This document shows positions 54,153-61,857 of a stretch of 64,000 bases of DNA, piece by piece. Numbering within the stretch: the stretch's first letter is position 1; each line of letters starts with the position of its first letter. The stretch lies in contig CAWHFW010000005.1 of the NCBI GenBank assembly GCA_963828735.1, positions 192,001 to 256,000 on the forward strand, written 5' to 3'. The position numbers and the translations under genes are program-made. Origin of the DNA: an uncultured Gemmatimonadales bacterium (GTDB lineage Bacteria; Gemmatimonadota; Gemmatimonadetes; Gemmatimonadales; GWC2-71-9). Below the pieces are notes generated by a model, which worked only from the letters and a program-made list of their open reading frames with translations, was not told where the DNA came from and made no database searches.

Positions 54153-55073
54153 CTACGGCGCGGAGCCGGTGGCCACCGGGAGCGAAGTATTCTCGGCCCA
54201 TTCGGTCCACGAGCCCACGTAGATCCGGACGCGTGGGTAGCCCAACAGGTACCGCAGGGTGAAGTAGACGTGGCTCGCCTCGGTGGCGCTGTTGCAGTAG
54301 GCGATGATATCGCGCTCGGGCACGATTCCTTGCGCGGCGTACGCCTGCCGCAGCTCGGCCGCCGGCTTCCACACGTGTCCGAAGCCCTCCTGGGTCAGAT
54401 CGTCCTGCCAGTAGTGGTTGATCGCCCCGGGTATGTGCCCGTGCCGCATCTGCGAACCGGCCTGCCCCGCGTACTGGTCCGGCGGCCGCGCATCGACGAG
54501 CAGGCCGCCCGCGCTCATGGCCTGCTGTACCTCGGACAGGACGGCCGCCTCGGGGTGGAACGGGCGATCGGGAAACGAGGTCGTCTGGAGCCGCGGATAC
54601 GGCTGTACGACCGCCCGCTGCTCGAGCTGCCACTTGAAGAACCCGCCGTCCAGCACGAACACCTTGGGATGGCCGAAGCCTGCGAGCAGCCACGCCAGGA
54701 ACGTGGCGTCGATGTTGTGGGTCTCGCCGGCGCTGTAGATCACCACCGGGCGGTCGAAGGCGATGCCGAGCCGTCCGAACAGCTCGCGATAGGCACCCGC
54801 GGAGAGCAGCCGGGTGGGGATCCCGCCTTCGCTCGCCCGAATCGTCTCCGTGTTCAGATACTCGGCGCCCGGAAGGTGGCCCTTCAGGTAAGTGAACACA
54901 TCGGTCCGTACGTCGAGCACCACGGCGTTGCTCTCCGCCTGCCATCGCGCGAGCTCCTCCGTCGAAATCAGCCGCGGCAGCGTCGAGGAGGCGGGCGCCG
55001 GCGCGGCCGCGGGTCCCGCGCACGCACCGCATAGCCAGGCCCAGACGAGAGCGGTCCCGAATCGTCGTTTCAC
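54153..55073 (-). CDS. Two-domain rhodanese sulfurtransferase, probable lipoprotein
   Basis: Cys-containing signal (WLCGAC); LDVR...Y..GHLPGA, LDGGF..W, DAR, GHIPGA, YCNSATEAS active loop, YVGSWTEW. Confidence 0.9.
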   Translation of the reverse strand: MKRRFGTALVWAWLCGACAGPAAAPAPASSTLPRLISTEELARWQAESNAVVLDVRTDVFTYLKGHLPGAEYLNTETIRASEGGIPTRLLSAGAYRELFGRLGIAFDRPVVIYSAGETHNIDATFLAWLLAGFGHPKVFVLDGGFFKWQLEQRAVVQPYPRLQTTSFPDRPFHPEAAVLSEVQQAMSAGGLLVDARPPDQYAGQAGSQMRHGHIPGAINHYWQDDLTQEGFGHVWKPAAELRQAYAAQGIVPERDIIAYCNSATEASHVYFTLRYLLGYPRVRIYVGSWTEWAENTSLPVATGSAP

Positions 55074-56032
55074 GGGAGCGAGTCCTCCAGCCCCATGTAC
55101 GCGTGCTCCTCCTCGACATAGACTCGCGCCGCGTTCCGCCGGCGGCGTGAATTGAGCGAGACCGGGCGGTTCTCCTCGGGCGGCGGGAGCGCGGCAAGCG
55201 CCCGCTGCATCGGGACGCCGCGCTCGACCGCTGATCGCATGTCGTCCTCGAGGCCCGTGATGTACGCACGTGTCCGAGCCACGAGGGCGGCCGCGTCCGC
55301 CGGGATCGCGCCATGCCCCGGGACCACCATCCGGGCCCCGAGGCTGTCGATGAAGTCCAGGCTGCGCCGAAGCGCGCGCGCGCTCCCATCCACCACCATC
55401 GTGACGCCGTCCTCGATCAAGAGATCGCCCGCGAAGAGTACCCGCTCCTTGGGAAGCCACACGATGAGGTCGCCGGCCGTATGCGCCGCTCCCGGGTGGT
55501 CGAGGACGATCGTCCGGCCGCCCAGCCGAAGCGTATCCCGGCCGGTCACCGGCCGGTCAGGCGTGTCGGCGAACTCGAACCCGCGCATCGCGTCGAGTCC
55601 CACCACGCGCACCCAGTCGGCGACCAGGGCATCAGGCCCGCCCTCGCTGGCGAGCGTCCGCGTGTCCGGATGGGCGATGACCTTGGCTCCCGCGCGCCGG
55701 AAGACGACGGCGCCGAACGTGTGATCGGGATGATGGTGCGTGAGCACCAGCCACCGCACCGGCTGTGTGGTAACCCGGCGGATGGTCTTGAGCAGTGCTT
55801 CGCCCTCACGTGGGCTCGCCAGCGCGTCCACCACGACGACGCCGTCCGTCGTGACGATGAAGCCCGCGTTCGATCGGCCTTCGGAGCCACGGCCCGTATC
55901 GCCCAGCACGGCGTAGACCCCGTCGGCGAGACGCCGGGGGGTATAGGCCGGGGCTCGCGACGTATCCGCGCTCACCCATGTGGCGGTCACGAGGCCGGAC
56001 AGCAGACTGAGCAGCGTGGGGAGAGGAGTCAC
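55070..56032 (-). CDS. Exported metallo-beta-lactamase-fold hydrolase (SoxH-like)
   Basis: Signal peptide; NAGFI, THHHPDHTFG (HxHxDH), AHTAGD, FAGDL, VPGHG. Confidence 0.87.
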   Translation of the reverse strand: MTPLPTLLSLLSGLVTATWVSADTSRAPAYTPRRLADGVYAVLGDTGRGSEGRSNAGFIVTTDGVVVVDALASPREGEALLKTIRRVTTQPVRWLVLTHHHPDHTFGAVVFRRAGAKVIAHPDTRTLASEGGPDALVADWVRVVGLDAMRGFEFADTPDRPVTGRDTLRLGGRTIVLDHPGAAHTAGDLIVWLPKERVLFAGDLLIEDGVTMVVDGSARALRRSLDFIDSLGARMVVPGHGAIPADAAALVARTRAYITGLEDDMRSAVERGVPMQRALAALPPPEENRPVSLNSRRRRNAARVYVEEEHAYMGLEDSLP

Positions 56033-56068
56033 GGGAAGGCGGGGCGAGAAGCCCGGCCCGGCATGCGG

Positions 56069-56401
56069 CTACGCCGCGGCGAAGGCGATGGTGACCGACT
56101 GCCGGTAGACGCCGCCCTTGTTGTCGGTCCAGACCATCGTGAGCGGCGCTTCCTTGTCTGCGGTGAGCGTGAAGCTCACGATGGGGTCCTTGCTCACGCC
56201 GGACGTCCACTCGAACCGGGCCACCTGGTCCTCGCCGTACGTCACCACGACTTCACGGATGAAGTACGCGGGAATGGCCTGCCCTTCCGCGGTGCGGAAG
56301 AACCCGGTGTCCATGGGGTGGACCACGATCGCGTTCACCGTGATGAGGTCGCCGCGCGAGATGCGGTCGGGAATCCGGATGCGGGCGTCGCCGATGGTCA
56401 T
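56069..56401 (-). CDS. soxZ: SoxZ-like sulfur carrier partner
   Basis: HPMDTGF.R...G..IPA.FI, SGVSKDP..SF, WTDNKG; TGATG overlap with the soxY stop. Confidence 0.88.
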   Translation of the reverse strand: MTIGDARIRIPDRISRGDLITVNAIVVHPMDTGFFRTAEGQAIPAYFIREVVVTYGEDQVARFEWTSGVSKDPIVSFTLTADKEAPLTMVWTDNKGGVYRQSVTIAFAAA

Positions 56402-56889
56402 CACCCGCACCCGTTGAGCGAGACGTTGACGTGGGCGTAGGCCGCCCAGACGTCACCGGTCGAGGTCTCGAGGATCGCGCGCACCCAGGTAGTGCGCTTC
56501 ATCTTGATCCGGGTCTGGATGGCCACCGAGCCGATCGCGGGCGTCAGGTGATACGCGGCCAGATGGGGGTCGGGGTTGTGGTCCACGATCAGATGGACGG
56601 CCTTCACGTAGTTGTCGGGCGTCATCGGGAGGCCGCTCTCGATGATGACCGGAACGATGCGACCGTCCTCCGCGACCGCCGGCATGTCCAGCGTGAGCTG
56701 GCCCTTCCGGATCGGACGGTCACCGAAGAGATCCTTGAGAATCCGGGCCACCTCTTCGTTCGGTACCTCGGGATCGCCCGGGTCGGAAACCGACGCGAGG
56801 AGACGCTCACCTCGGCCCAGAACACCCGAACCGAACAAGCCGGCGCCGGCGAGAGCGCAACTCCTGAGGAACGATCGGCGGGAGGCCAT
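56401..56889 (-). CDS. soxY: SoxY-like sulfur carrier protein, Tat-exported
   Basis: Twin-arginine SRRSFLR; P..AEDG..VP, DHNPDP, TRIKM; C-terminal VNVSLNGCG swinging arm. Confidence 0.88.
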   Translation of the reverse strand: MASRRSFLRSCALAGAGLFGSGVLGRGERLLASVSDPGDPEVPNEEVARILKDLFGDRPIRKGQLTLDMPAVAEDGRIVPVIIESGLPMTPDNYVKAVHLIVDHNPDPHLAAYHLTPAIGSVAIQTRIKMKRTTWVRAILETSTGDVWAAYAHVNVSLNGCG

Positions 56890-57089
56890 GCGGATAACCT
56901 CAGACCTCCCGGAAGCGAAGTCAAGCGAGGCCTTTTGGTTCCGAAACGGCGCGGGCCTTGCGGGGGCGGGTCGGGGCCGCCGAGCCGGCCCCTGCAACTT
57001 GTGTCATGCTGGGCCGGTTGCTAGTTTAAACCATTCTGTTACAAAGCGATGTGAGGCCCCCTCCTCACTCCTCTTCAGGCTGAGGCGCC

Positions 57090-58295
57090 GTGGACACCCA
57101 AGAACTTCAACAGGTCGCGTTGTTCGACAAGTGCCGCGAATTCACCAAAGCGCGGGAACTCCAGGCGCTTGGTCTATATCCGTACTTCAATCCGATTTCC
57201 GAATCGGAGGACACCGTCGTCGTCATCGACGGACAGAAGCGGATCATGCTTGGGTCGAACAACTACCTGGGACTGACCCACCACCCCAAGGTCCTCGAGT
57301 CCGCCAGCCGGGCGCTCAGCCGCTATGGCTCGGGCTGCACGGGGAGCCGGTTCCTGAACGGCACGCTCGATCTGCACGAGCAGCTCGAGCACGCCCTGGC
57401 TGAGTTCCTTGGCAAGGAGGCCTGTCTCGTTTTCTCGACCGGCTACACCGCCAACCTGGGCCTGATCTCGGGTCTCGTCGGCCGCGGCGAGGTGGTCTAC
57501 CTCGACAAGCTCGATCACGCCTCGATCGTGGACGGCGCGAAGATGTCCTACGGCGAGACCGAGCGCTTCAACCATGGCGACCTCGGCAACCTCGAGCGTC
57601 GGATGGAGCGGAACGGGTCGGGCAAGGGCTCGATGATCGTGGTGGACGGCGTGTACTCGATGGAAGGCAACATCGCCGACGTGCCGTCGCTGGTCCGCAT
57701 CGCCCGGAAGTACGGTTCCGCGCTTGCGCTGGACGACGCCCACGCGCTCGGCGTTCTCGGCCCCAATGGCGATGGCACGGCCGCCCATTTCGGGATGACA
57801 GATGAGGTGGACATCATCGCCGGCACGTTCTCCAAGTCGCTGGCCTCGATCGGCGGCTTCGTCGCCGCGAGCGAAAACGTCATTCACTACCTGAAGCACC
57901 ATAGTCGGCCTCTCATCTTCACGGCCTCTCTTCCGCCGGCCAACACCGCCGGCGTGCTCACGGCCCTTCAGGTGCTGCAGGACGAGCCGGGACGCCGTGA
58001 CTACCTGTGGGCCAATACCCGCCGGCTGCAGGACGGGTTCCGGAGCCTGGGCTTCGACATCGGGCCCACCGAGACCCCGATCGTACCGGTCCTCATCGGT
58101 CCGCTCGAGAAGACCTTCCTCATGTGGCGCCGCCTGTTCGACGCGGGCGTCTTCACGAACCCGGTGGCGCCGCCAGCCGTGCCGCCGACCCAATGCCGCC
58201 TCCGGACGAGCGTCATGGCCACGCACACGTTCGAGCAGATCGACTTCGCGCTCGAACAGTTCGCGCGCATCGGACGGGACCTGGGGGTCATCTGA
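57090..58295 (+). CDS. spt: Serine palmitoyltransferase (AOS family)
   Basis: YPYF, GSNNYLGL, GSRFLNGT (Spt-type Asn), DHASIVDG, GVYSMEG, DDAH, GTFSKS, IFTASLPP; followed by a bCerS-like gene. Confidence 0.82.
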   Translation: MDTQELQQVALFDKCREFTKARELQALGLYPYFNPISESEDTVVVIDGQKRIMLGSNNYLGLTHHPKVLESASRALSRYGSGCTGSRFLNGTLDLHEQLEHALAEFLGKEACLVFSTGYTANLGLISGLVGRGEVVYLDKLDHASIVDGAKMSYGETERFNHGDLGNLERRMERNGSGKGSMIVVDGVYSMEGNIADVPSLVRIARKYGSALALDDAHALGVLGPNGDGTAAHFGMTDEVDIIAGTFSKSLASIGGFVAASENVIHYLKHHSRPLIFTASLPPANTAGVLTALQVLQDEPGRRDYLWANTRRLQDGFRSLGFDIGPTETPIVPVLIGPLEKTFLMWRRLFDAGVFTNPVAPPAVPPTQCRLRTSVMATHTFEQIDFALEQFARIGRDLGVI

Positions 58296-59428
58296 CCGAG
58301 CCGCTGCGCGTCCGCGCGGCGCGCGAGCGGACCGACGTTCACCGCTTCATCGATCTGCCGTACCGGCTCCACGCGCGGGACCCGCTCTGGGTCCCGCCGT
58401 TGCGTCGGGATGTCGCGCTGCTCCTCTCCCGCGAGAAGAATCCCTTCTTCGAGCACGCCGAGGCCGAGTACTTCCTCGCCGAGCGCGGCGGGGAGGCCGT
58501 CGGCCGCATCGCGGCGATCAGCAACCGCCTGCACAACGAGACCCACGGCGACCGGGTGGGATTCTTCGGTTTCTTCGAGTGCGTTGACGACCAGTCCGTC
58601 GCCGACGCGCTGGTTGCAATCGCGGCCGAATGGTGCCGCGGCAAGGGCCACGACGTGCTCCGCGGGCCGGCGTCCTTTTCCGTGAACGACGAGTGCGGGC
58701 TCCTCGTGGACGGCTTTGAAACGCCGCCGACCATCATGATGCCGCATAACCCTCGCTACTACGTGGCGCTGCTCGAGCGGGCGGGATTTGCGAAGGCGAA
58801 GGACCTCCTGGTCTACGAAGGTGGAGACCACGAGCGCTACAAGCCCGTGCCCGAGCGGCTGGCCCGCGGCACGGAGTTGATCCGCCAGCGCATGGGCATC
58901 ACCCTCCGCCCCCTCAACGTGAAGAACTTCGAGGCCGAGGTGGAGCTCATCAAGGAGCTCTACAACGCCGCATGGGAGAAGAACTGGGGCTTCGTCCCGA
59001 TGACCGACCATGAGATCGATCATCTGGCGGAGCAGTTCAAGCCGGTCGTGATTCCGGAGCTGGTGCCGATCGCCGAGAAGGACGGGAAGGTCATCGGGTT
59101 CGGCCTCGCGCTGCCCGATCTCAACGTGGTTTTTCAGCAGAATCGCTCGGGGCGGATGTTCCCGATGGTCCTCAAGCTTCTGTGGGCCCTCAAGACCCGG
59201 AAGATTCGCCGCGCCCGCATTCTCCTGCTCGGCATCCTGCCCGAGTATCGAGGGAGGGGCGTGGACGCGATGCTGTACCACTGGATCTGGACTAAATCCG
59301 GCGACCGCGGGATCTACTGGGGCGAGGCGGGATGGATTCTCGAGGACAATCCCGCCATGAACGCCGGGTTGGAGAAGATGACGTTCAAGGTCTACAAGAC
59401 CTACCGGCTCTACGACCGGCCGATATGA
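58292..59428 (+). CDS. GNAT-family protein, bacterial ceramide synthase (bCerS)-like
   Basis: WVPPL, GRIAA, GFFGFFE, GP.SFSVNDECGLLVDGF..PP..MMPHN..YY, WEKNWGFVPMT, LPDLN, WILEDN..M; probable CTG start overlapping the spt stop. Confidence 0.78.
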   Translation: MTEPLRVRAARERTDVHRFIDLPYRLHARDPLWVPPLRRDVALLLSREKNPFFEHAEAEYFLAERGGEAVGRIAAISNRLHNETHGDRVGFFGFFECVDDQSVADALVAIAAEWCRGKGHDVLRGPASFSVNDECGLLVDGFETPPTIMMPHNPRYYVALLERAGFAKAKDLLVYEGGDHERYKPVPERLARGTELIRQRMGITLRPLNVKNFEAEVELIKELYNAAWEKNWGFVPMTDHEIDHLAEQFKPVVIPELVPIAEKDGKVIGFGLALPDLNVVFQQNRSGRMFPMVLKLLWALKTRKIRRARILLLGILPEYRGRGVDAMLYHWIWTKSGDRGIYWGEAGWILEDNPAMNAGLEKMTFKVYKTYRLYDRPI

Positions 59429-60393
59429 AGGCGCTGGTCACCGGCGCCACGGGGTTCGTCGGCAGTCACCTCGTCGAAGCGCTCCGCCGCCGGGGGGCTG
59501 AGGTCTCCGCGCTGGCCCGTTCCGCGAGCAAGGCCGCGGCCCTGACGCCGCTCGGCGTCCGCGTGGTGGCGGGAGATCTGCACGACCGGGGGGCGCTCGA
59601 GCGCGCGATGGACGGGCAGGACGTCGTCTACCACGTTGCCGGCGTCGTCGCGGCCCGGAGCGAGGCGGACTTCATGGCGGCCAATCGTGATGGAACCCGC
59701 AACATCGTCGACACGTTGGAGCGCGCGGGATCCGGACGGCTGGTGTTCGTCTCCTCGATGGCCGCGGCGGGTCCGACGATCAAGGGACGGCCGCTCCGGG
59801 GCGATGAGGCCCCCCGACCGGTCACCGCCTACGGCCGCAGCAAGCTCGCCGCCGAGCAGGCCGTTACCGCGGGCCGCTCGCCGTGGACCATCATTCGGCC
59901 GCCCCTGGTCTACGGCCCCAGGGACCAGGAAGTGCTCAAGGTGTTCCGGCTGGCCCGGCTCGGCGTCGCGCCGGTGCTGGGCGACGGCTCCCAGGAGCTG
60001 TCGGCGGTGCACGGCGCCGATCTCGCCGAGGCGCTCGTCGCGGCCGGGATCTCGGACGCCACGGTCGGCCGGACCTACTACGCCTGCCATCCCGAAGTCT
60101 TCAGCGGCGCCGACATGGCTCGCGCCGTCGGCCGCGCGATGGGGAAGTCGCCGGCCGTCATCCGCGTGCCGGCGACGATCGGTCGCGGTGTACTCATGAT
60201 CACCGAGGCCGCCGCCCGGCTCACCGGTCACGCCACCATTCTCACCGCCGACAAGGCCAACGAGTTCTTCCAGCCGGCCTGGACCGGCGACCCGAGCCCG
60301 CTCACGCGCGACACCGGCTGGCAGGCGGCGCACGATCTGCGCAGCGGGCTCGAGGAGACGTATCAGTGGTACCGGGCGGCGGGATGGCTGTAG
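59425..60393 (+). CDS. Extended SDR / NAD-dependent epimerase; candidate ceramide or 3-ketosphinganine reductase
   Basis: VTGATGFVG, HVAG, VSS, YGRSK, RPPLVYGP; ATGA overlap with the upstream gene. Confidence 0.75.
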   Translation: MKALVTGATGFVGSHLVEALRRRGAEVSALARSASKAAALTPLGVRVVAGDLHDRGALERAMDGQDVVYHVAGVVAARSEADFMAANRDGTRNIVDTLERAGSGRLVFVSSMAAAGPTIKGRPLRGDEAPRPVTAYGRSKLAAEQAVTAGRSPWTIIRPPLVYGPRDQEVLKVFRLARLGVAPVLGDGSQELSAVHGADLAEALVAAGISDATVGRTYYACHPEVFSGADMARAVGRAMGKSPAVIRVPATIGRGVLMITEAAARLTGHATILTADKANEFFQPAWTGDPSPLTRDTGWQAAHDLRSGLEETYQWYRAAGWL

Positions 60394-61265
60394 CGGTTCG
60401 TCCCAGCGCCTCGGTGCGCTCGCCCTCGCCTCGCCAGGCCGGCCTGCTGCCGGTCGACCTCGTCCTCCTCGGCTACCTCGGTATCGTGACCGTCGTCGCG
60501 ATCCGCCGCGCGCCGTCGCAGCCCGGGTGCTGGTGGCTGGTGGTCGCGAACGGCTTCGCGGCGCTGCTCGTCGCCCTTCTGAGCAGGCCAGGCCTCGGAC
60601 GCCTCGGCCAGGCGATCCGGGAGATCTATCCCCTGCTGCTCCTCGTCGGCCTCTACGGTCAGCTGGACGTCCTCAACCGCGGGGTCGTGCGGGCGCACGA
60701 CGCGCTGGTGCAGCACTGGGAGCTGACGCTGTTCGGCGCCCAGGTCAGCCGGGTCTGGTGGCAGGCCGCGCCGAGCGTGTTCTGGTCCACCGTGCTCCAC
60801 GGCGCGTACTTCGCCTACTACTTCATTATTACTGTCCCCGCCTGCTACTTCCTCTGGCGCGGCGACCTCGTCGCGGTCCGGCGGTTCGTGCTCACGGTGC
60901 TCACGACGTTCGTGCTCTGCTACCTGGTGTTCATCTTCTTCCCGGTGGCCGGACCCTACTACGTGTTCCCGCGACCGGCGGACTGGTTCGTGGCGAACCC
61001 GGCCGCGCGGCTGGTGTACGAGACGCTCGCGGAAGGCAGCTCCTACGGGGCGGCCTTTCCCAGCTCGCACGTCGCGGCCACGGTGGCGGCGGCGGTGACC
61101 GCGGCCATGGGGTCTCGACGCCTCGGCCTGTTGCTGCTCGTGCCGACCGTGCTGTTGACGGTGGGCGTGGTCTACTGCCAGATGCACTATGGCGTCGACG
61201 CGTTGGCCGGGCTTGCTGTCGGTGGACTCGTAGCGCTCGGAGCCTATCGGGTCCGCGTGGTCTGA
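60384..61265 (+). CDS. PAP2-superfamily membrane protein, Aur1/IPC-synthase-like
   Basis: Several TM segments; FPVAGP, AFPSSH (C2), HYGVD (C3); lacks the KxxxxxxRP C1 motif of PAP2 phosphatases. Confidence 0.75.
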   Translation: MAVAVRPSASVRSPSPRQAGLLPVDLVLLGYLGIVTVVAIRRAPSQPGCWWLVVANGFAALLVALLSRPGLGRLGQAIREIYPLLLLVGLYGQLDVLNRGVVRAHDALVQHWELTLFGAQVSRVWWQAAPSVFWSTVLHGAYFAYYFIITVPACYFLWRGDLVAVRRFVLTVLTTFVLCYLVFIFFPVAGPYYVFPRPADWFVANPAARLVYETLAEGSSYGAAFPSSHVAATVAAAVTAAMGSRRLGLLLLVPTVLLTVGVVYCQMHYGVDALAGLAVGGLVALGAYRVRVV

Positions 61266-61322: not shown

Positions 61323-61355
61323 AAAAAAAGGGGACTCCGTGGAGGAGTCCCCTTT
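61323..61355. terminator. Bidirectional Rho-independent terminator
   Basis: A7-GGGGACTCC-gtgga-GGAGTCCCC-TTT between convergent genes. Confidence 0.85.
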
Positions 61356-61377: not shown

Positions 61378-61857
61378 CTACTGAACGGTGATCTTGCCGT
61401 GCATGCCCAGCGCGAGGTGCGGAAGGCAGTAGAACTTGTAGTCACCCGTCGGAGCGCCGCTGAAGCTGACCTTGTATGTCCCATCCTGCTCGGTGAGCAG
61501 CGGGCCCTCGAGGGGCGCCATTTGATCGGGCATACCCGCCTTGAGCTTGTCTGCCGCACCGGCCGGAACACTGTCGGCCCAGAACGACACGTTGTGCGGG
61601 CCGCCGCTCTTGTTGTGAAACGTCACGACATCGCCGGACTTGATGGTCAGGTCGGACGGATCAAACTTGTAGGTGCTGCCCTCGAGCACCATGTTCACGT
61701 CGTGGTTGCCGCCGCCAGCGGCGTCAGGGGCAGCAGGCGCCGCTGCCGCCGGCTGTTCCGGGGCCGCAGTCGTCGTGGTTTGCTCGTCAGCCTTTTTCTC
61801 GCCACCGCAGGCTGCCAGAACGAGGGCCAGCCCCGCCACCATGGATGTCACACGCAT
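61378..61857 (-). CDS. Plastocyanin/halocyanin-like blue copper lipoprotein
   Basis: Lipobox LAAC, Ala/Pro linker, F.P..LTIK.GD, GPHNV, YKFYCLPHLALGM.G. Confidence 0.9.
   Translation of the reverse strand: MRVTSMVAGLALVLAACGGEKKADEQTTTTAAPEQPAAAAPAAPDAAGGGNHDVNMVLEGSTYKFDPSDLTIKSGDVVTFHNKSGGPHNVSFWADSVPAGAADKLKAGMPDQMAPLEGPLLTEQDGTYKVSFSGAPTGDYKFYCLPHLALGMHGKITVQ

Follow-up and report, generated by a model that had tools for sequence, protein, structure and literature searches.

A predicted phospholipid:ceramide phosphotransferase of the Aur1 fold in a ceramide-type operon of Gemmatimonadales bacteria

In a soil bacterium of the Gemmatimonadales, the gene that ends a four-gene operon is likely to encode an inner-membrane phospholipid:ceramide phosphotransferase of the LPT family, which would complete the pathway of the operon. 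The operon lies in a 64,000-nucleotide stretch of DNA (the window), and the gene at 60384..61265 belongs to what is a real, conserved, and uncharacterised subfamily of a known enzyme kind, termed here PVxGP. The phosphotransferase reading is supported by the motifs of the protein, its fold, the missing phosphatase-specific residues, and gene linkage. As the chemistry is already known, the system is not new in kind. The literature searched, with most subscription papers beyond it, contained no study of the PVxGP subfamily or of Gemmatimonadota sphingolipids. The features discussed are as follows.

57090..58295, + strand: spt, serine palmitoyltransferase-like alpha-oxoamine synthase; best NCBIfam match NF047600 SerpalmtaseCFB
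58292..59428, + strand: cerS, GNAT protein, bCerS-like (PF00583); start codon uncertain
59425..60393, + strand: extended SDR, CerR-like (PF01370); ATGA overlap with cerS, stop overlapping the ATG of the PAP2_3 gene by 10 nt
60384..61265, + strand: Aur1-fold PAP2_3 (PVxGP subfamily) membrane enzyme gene; 293 aa; predicted phospholipid:ceramide phosphotransferase
60942..60956, + strand: PVAGP motif, aligned with PAAPP of Aur1 and BT_1522
61056..61070, + strand: C2 motif FPSSH, with His229 aligned with Aur1 H255
61185..61199, + strand: C3 motif HYGVD, with His268 and Asp272 aligned with Aur1 H294 and D298; Met just before; no C3 Arg
61327..61355, - strand: 12-bp hairpin with U tail, likely terminator, between the operon and a convergent cupredoxin gene

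The coupling to ceramide-type genes proposed in an initial annotation of this DNA holds, with spt, a cerS-like gene, and a CerR-like gene directly upstream. The spt product scored 522 bits against NF047600, a model for Bacteroidota-type SPT with a cut-off of 640, compared with 383 for BioF and 311-386 for Kbl; gene context supports its assignment as Spt rather than BioF or Kbl. A separate paralogue with 38% identity is encoded elsewhere in the genome. The GNAT protein is 35-36% identical to proteins annotated as YghO. Based on Pfam, context, and homology matches, the GNAT protein is probably bCerS-like and the SDR CerR-like. Spt, GNAT, and SDR enzymes are the types that make up the bacterial ceramide pathway (PMC11087976; bioRxiv 2023.05.23.541633). 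The pathway of Caulobacter and B. fragilis (Spt/bCerS/CerR; BF9343_4218, BF9343_4240) thus has three enzyme types in common with the operon, by type and not by direct sequence comparison, but here the genes form one overlapping operon that includes a head-group gene. A promoter scan at the operon found nothing, and the scan for terminator hairpins found one where 2.0 are expected by chance, making the hairpin weak evidence alone. The cupredoxin lipoprotein gene (window 61378-61854, - strand) is convergent with the operon in most close relatives and probably reflects a conserved neighbourhood only. On the other side, divergent from spt, a sulfur-carrier cluster (window 54153-56997, - strand) encodes SoxY, a rhodanese, and a protein of the metallo-beta-lactamase fold, and includes a SoxZ-like ORF.

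The open reading frame of the fourth gene runs from an ATG at 60384 to a TGA at 61263-65, and the FPSSH, HYGVD, and PVAGP motifs that the initial annotation had placed in it were all located there. The protein matched the Pfam HMMs PAP2_3 (PF14378, 62.7 bits) and PAP2 (37.9 bits), and its His-His-Asp triad is H229/H268/D272 in full-protein numbering. Residue numbers in the family alignment (A2, 101 sequences) are one lower, as the query P0001 begins at codon 2; in that numbering H267, Y268, D271, G189, and P225 do not vary at all, and 100 of the 101 sequences keep H228. PVxGP is present in all 15 operon copies, in which the residue preceding the catalytic His is M, F, or V. The absence of the phosphatase C1 motif, also claimed initially, extends to the whole family: K-x6-RP occurs in 0/101 sequences of A2. 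At the position of the C3 Arg (SR-x5-H-x3-D), column 261 is T, A, V, or S in 101/101, with a loose regular expression matching a single sequence. As a positive control, the genome's own canonical PAP2 phosphatases, three of three, have both C1 and the C3 Arg, residues that bind monoester phosphate.

The AlphaFold model of the protein (pLDDT 94.4) was searched with Foldseek, and the best matches were Aur1 structures (9vj4, E 1.7e-4; 9ivc, E 5e-4; TM 0.64), with no other match reaching E ≤ 0.001. With VIA-align, 255 residues of the model (16-292), N-terminal helices included, aligned with Aur1 at Z 18.6 and rmsd 4.0, so that the Aur1-type pattern initially proposed from motifs is matched by the fold over the whole length; LpxE was the third fold match (Z 16.7 over 162 residues). 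The A2 profile aligned with Aur1 across positions 15-279 (E 2.4e-4), and the phosphatases LpxE (E 1e-5) and YodM (E 3.5e-5) outscored Aur1 but on the C-terminal part only. A single-sequence PDB search with the protein gave no match. Compared with Saccharomyces cerevisiae Aur1, the catalytic subunit of IPC synthase, the protein has the same whole-length fold and H-H-D triad and likewise has neither C1 nor the C3 Arg, but identity is 16-17%, PVAGP replaces PAAPP, the loop before C2 is shorter, and Met takes the place of His293. Aur1 requires Kei1, whereas no Kei1-type gene is present within the four-gene operon. Human SMSr (PDB 8ijq), which uses PE, has the predicted reaction type and the triad in common with the protein but is a poorer fold match (Z 10.7, rank 29), and the sphingomyelin synthase HMM PF14360 scored 14.9 bits on the protein, under its cut-off of 27. 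A search for longer proteins with the domain found two, carrying a peptidase domain in one case and a spermidine-synthase-like domain in the other, both possibly read-through and uninformative, and a scan of viral contigs gave no relatives.

The PAP2 lipid phosphate phosphatases (LpxE 6ebu, PgpB, YodM) share the five-helix LPT core and the C2 and C3 histidines with the gene product, but C1 K-x6-RP and the C3 Arg, both missing here, are present in them, and their alignment starts only at about residue 103. The gene could be read as encoding a hydrolase of sphingolipid turnover, either a phosphatase acting on ceramide-1-phosphate or a sphingoid phosphate or an enzyme like phospholipase C with water replacing ceramide, since the triad is common to all LPT phosphatases, LpxE has the best profile score in addition to its place among the fold matches, and databases label the protein as a phosphatase. 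Hydrolysis of glycerophospholipids without ceramide is reported for SMSr (PMC7988496). We judge a hydrolase to be unlikely given that C1 is missing throughout the family and the C3 column is never Arg, that Aur1 alone matches the fold over the whole length, and that the clusters inspected contain no kinase gene.

The phosphotransferase reading draws further on genomic linkage. A scan of GTDB returned at least 582 loci, of which the best 80 (51-74% identity), and therefore close relatives, were examined; after 22 loci with less than 3.6 kb of upstream sequence were left out, spt, cerS, and the SDR gene were found in order upstream in all 58 remaining (≥3.6 kb upstream). The initial annotation had let its proposal depend on linkage to spt in other genomes, and the linkage was found in these 58 assessable loci and also in Nonomuraea gerenzanensis, outside the phylum, where a family member adjoins SDR, cerS, and spt homologues. 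(The record has the Nonomuraea spt homologue, L298:8111-9456, divided between two frames.) The named homologues are from Gemmatimonadales. Among 201 genomes of the phylum, 111 carry the gene together with a close cerS and 73 carry neither, while 3 have just the gene and 14 just cerS, tallies in which kin are not independent, some matches are unlinked paralogues, and the unpublished genome G181 is included. In family f4 the order is rearranged to SDR-spt-cerS-PAP2 with the gene still in the cluster. Three genomes (G026, G111, G141) have the three-gene cluster with their homologue elsewhere, and cerS clusters without the gene are present in G137, G169, G178, G074, and G179, several clusters having nothing at that position. 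In favour of the phosphotransferase, other clusters without the gene have different decorating genes, such as GT4 and LPG_synthase_TM genes in or near its slot in G124 and an LTA-synthase-family gene in Rubrobacter. The SDR is found without a PAP2 neighbour in four of the six plasmid-collection SDR records opened, Parabacteroides distasonis and Aureispira being species that show this arrangement.

Some family members are not near spt and are found as solitary copies or in SDR-PAP2_3-SDR clusters. Such paralogues, together with the 3 of 114 carriers that have no close cerS, would fit a phosphotransferase with an acceptor other than ceramide (diacylglycerol, an amino-lipid, or lipid A) that sits in the operon for co-regulation, and Bacteroides glycyl-seryl lipids phospho-linked to DAG or dihydroceramide are described in PMC12132519. 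We regard this as improbable because the link to spt, cerS, or SDR is kept in three phyla and survives rearrangement.

Several other gene arrangements were observed. A cluster of SDR, PAP2_3, SDR, and an Rce1-like protease without spt is recurrent (L163, L170, L171, L047, L169), with genes for an alpha/beta hydrolase and a desaturase ahead of it in some loci, and is possibly an accessory lipid-modifying module. Two spt-cerS-SDR operons on actinobacterial plasmids have a different fourth gene, encoding an LTA-synthase-family protein in Rubrobacter radiotolerans (L305) and a condensation-domain protein in Streptomyces sp. NBC_01001 (L306). In genome G104 (L138:11-9185), a fused AMP-binding/acyl-CoA dehydrogenase/ACP/oxoamine synthase is encoded near a PVxGP gene, a UDP-GlcNAc 2-epimerase gene, and cerS.

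In the pathway that we propose for the phosphotransferase, Spt would form 3-ketosphinganine, which the GNAT protein would acylate and the SDR reduce to (dihydro)ceramide. His268, activated by Asp272, would accept the phospho-head group from a glycerophospholipid with release of diacylglycerol, and His229 would activate the 1-OH of ceramide, which would then take the head group. We consider these catalytic steps probable by analogy with Aur1, for which PMC13133130 reports that H255A, H294A, and D298A abolish activity (mechanism in PMC13133130 and PMC12122681). Counting against a phosphotransferase are the empty single-sequence PDB search, the profile scores that favour two phosphatases on the C-terminal part, the spt score below cut-off, the copies away from spt, the clusters without the gene, the SDR records without a PAP2 neighbour, the frameshift in MIPS, and Met or Phe in place of the His that precedes the catalytic His in Aur1 and BT_1522.

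The initial annotation also held that bacterial head-group routes use other enzyme families, which is wrong. An Aur1-type PI-ceramide synthase has been published for B. thetaiotaomicron: deleting its Aur1 homologue BT_1522 abolishes PI-dihydroceramide (PMC9246714; PMC8791184) while PE-DHC persists (PMC9246714), and a second group observed residual IPC in the mutant (PMC8791184). The reaction is therefore not new for bacteria. For comparison, the primer printed in PMC9246714 was used to retrieve 119 metagenome loci, 23 of them with a PAP2_3 gene, and the proteins termed BT_1522-like here are metagenome proteins from the matching cluster rather than a record labelled BT_1522. Like the PVxGP protein, BT_1522 is a bacterial enzyme of the PF14378 type with the same triad, and its transfer reaction has been shown genetically; unlike it, BT_1522 is on a separate branch, and the BT_1522-like genes typically lie in a cluster with MIPS and PI synthase (from the 23 of 119 loci) and not with spt, cerS, and cerR. 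The BT_1522-like proteins have PAAPPW and HHY and match Aur1 as single sequences at E 1.5e-14. Their profile aligned with that of the PVxGP family at a probability of 96% over 252 columns with 17% identity, and a tree separated the two groups at 100/99 with a long branch, based on 49 chosen rows, unrooted, with compositional bias flagged and Aur1 itself not among the rows. A quick first tree had put the BT-like branch inside the PVxGP family with a long-branch warning, and the careful tree was preferred. Given the 17% identity and the 100/99 split, the gene would therefore work like Aur1 and BT_1522 but off their branch. The loop from the proline motif to C2 is 46 residues in BT_1522-like proteins versus 33 in the PVxGP protein. 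Just before the catalytic His, at a position that controls the selectivity of trypanosome and animal synthases, Aur1 and four of five BT_1522-like proteins have His and the PVAGP proteins of Bacteroidales have Ala, whereas Met or Phe stands here. That the gene is instead the BT_1522 orthologue, an IPC synthase specific for PI on the Aur1 branch, is very unlikely despite the profile match, the common triad, and the MIPS and PI-synthase-like genes of the genome, and by sequence comparison orthology is refuted (an identical product being possible), given the low identity, PVAGP versus PAAPPW, the tree split, the single-sequence matches to Aur1 that BT_1522-like proteins give and the PVxGP protein does not, and a separate PVAGP gene in Bacteroidales that forms no clade with BT_1522-like proteins.

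The genome has a second PAP2_3/Aur1-type gene (C3:6186-7211, L044) with PTAPPW, which adjoins a gene for a spermidine-synthase-like membrane protein; the two domain types adjacent there are fused in P0304. Its product has a higher PF14378 score than the operon's protein and groups with the BT_1522-like proteins. This gene was rejected as the housekeeping enzyme of the lineage because only 5 of 201 genomes have it. An Aur1-like gene in the Pseudomonas sga cluster was looked for and not found, with 0 hits for PAP2 or inositol.

Most of our expectation for the head-group donor in the Gemmatimonadales lineage is divided among four options: PI leads but falls short of an even chance, PG and PE are each rather unlikely, to the same degree, and a broad donor range is less likely still. 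Both PI and PE routes are present in the genome, with MIPS beside a CDP-alcohol transferase gene (PI-synthase-like) at C5:174076-175982 (L043:8226-10064), about 75 kb from the operon, and psd beside another. The MIPS gene is frameshifted in the assembly, probably through an assembly error, as suggested, though not proved for this strain, by related contigs in four runs that lack single bases near two places in MIPS. MIPS is found in 189/201 genomes of the phylum, and this near-universal presence therefore says little on the use of PI. Of the 111 carriers, MIPS was not found in one (G064, operon present; 99% complete, 140 contigs), compared with 2 of the 14 cerS-only genomes (Fisher p 0.03, weak and kin-biased), whereas 12 gave no psd match, the 10 carriers of family f6 all among them. 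This contrast, 12 of 111 carriers without a PS decarboxylase match and one without a MIPS match, slightly favours PI. In family f6, psd was found in 0/11 genomes and MIPS in all, with 10 carrying the PVxGP gene; PE is thus not a universal donor, since these carriers show no psd, and the lineage may lack PE. Only three CDP-alcohol transferases were seen in the four f6 genomes checked (the family including G086, G109, G218, G127, and others). PG was excluded as donor in no genome examined. The new bacterial phosphosphingolipid suggested by the initial annotation is possible and not indicated; inositol, glycerol, and ethanolamine phosphoceramide are known bacterial lipids.

Members of the Gemmatimonadales are common in soil, and from the operon more than half of the phylum, as sampled, is predicted to have a phosphosphingolipid. 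Spt-like genes are listed for 40 phyla in a Black Sea survey, the main text of which does not name Gemmatimonadota. A sharper point is that the Bacteroidales PVAGP member provides a named candidate gene for PE-ceramide synthase. Starting from a search of a plasmid collection, PVAGP proteins were found in Phocaeicola massiliensis, Bacteroides finegoldii, Prevotella sp. F0039, and a B. eggerthii-like record, that is, in species other than B. thetaiotaomicron or B. fragilis. The gene is directly behind an SDR gene orthologous to that of the operon in all four records, the P. massiliensis pair having been pieced together from two records. In B. finegoldii, the SDR and PAP2 genes overlap by 10 nt, as in the Gemmatimonadales operon, and the best matches of their products in the genome under study are the SDR (E 5e-38) and PAP2_3 (E 2e-10) proteins of the operon; the PAP2 protein (WP_237923849.1) scored 167 bits on the PVxGP profile versus -7 on the BT_1522-like profile. 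In the tree, the Bacteroidales PVAGP proteins nest within the PVxGP family, and an AU test rejected a clade uniting them with the BT_1522-like proteins (p 0.0009). Homologues are abundant, with 5947 of 6075 candidates at E ≤ 1e-20.

Ethanolamine phosphoceramide (PE-DHC) is the dominant sphingolipid of Bacteroides. PE-ceramide was made by all Bacteroides tested in PMC10191378, and PMC8791184 gives no match for the Drosophila EPC synthase as query. In the literature searched, most subscription papers lying beyond it, we found no report of a gene for the Bacteroides PE-DHC synthase. We tentatively suggest, as a possibility somewhat below an even chance, that PVxGP is a second widespread family of bacterial phosphosphingolipid synthases coupled to ceramide reductase, in which the Bacteroidales members would be the PE-DHC synthase, which may account for the IPC left in the BT_1522 mutant, and other lineages would use another donor. 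Two of the database clusters formed at 90% mix the Bacteroides PAP2 protein (321 aa) with 335-aa proteins named SDR, perhaps from a fused or read-through record.
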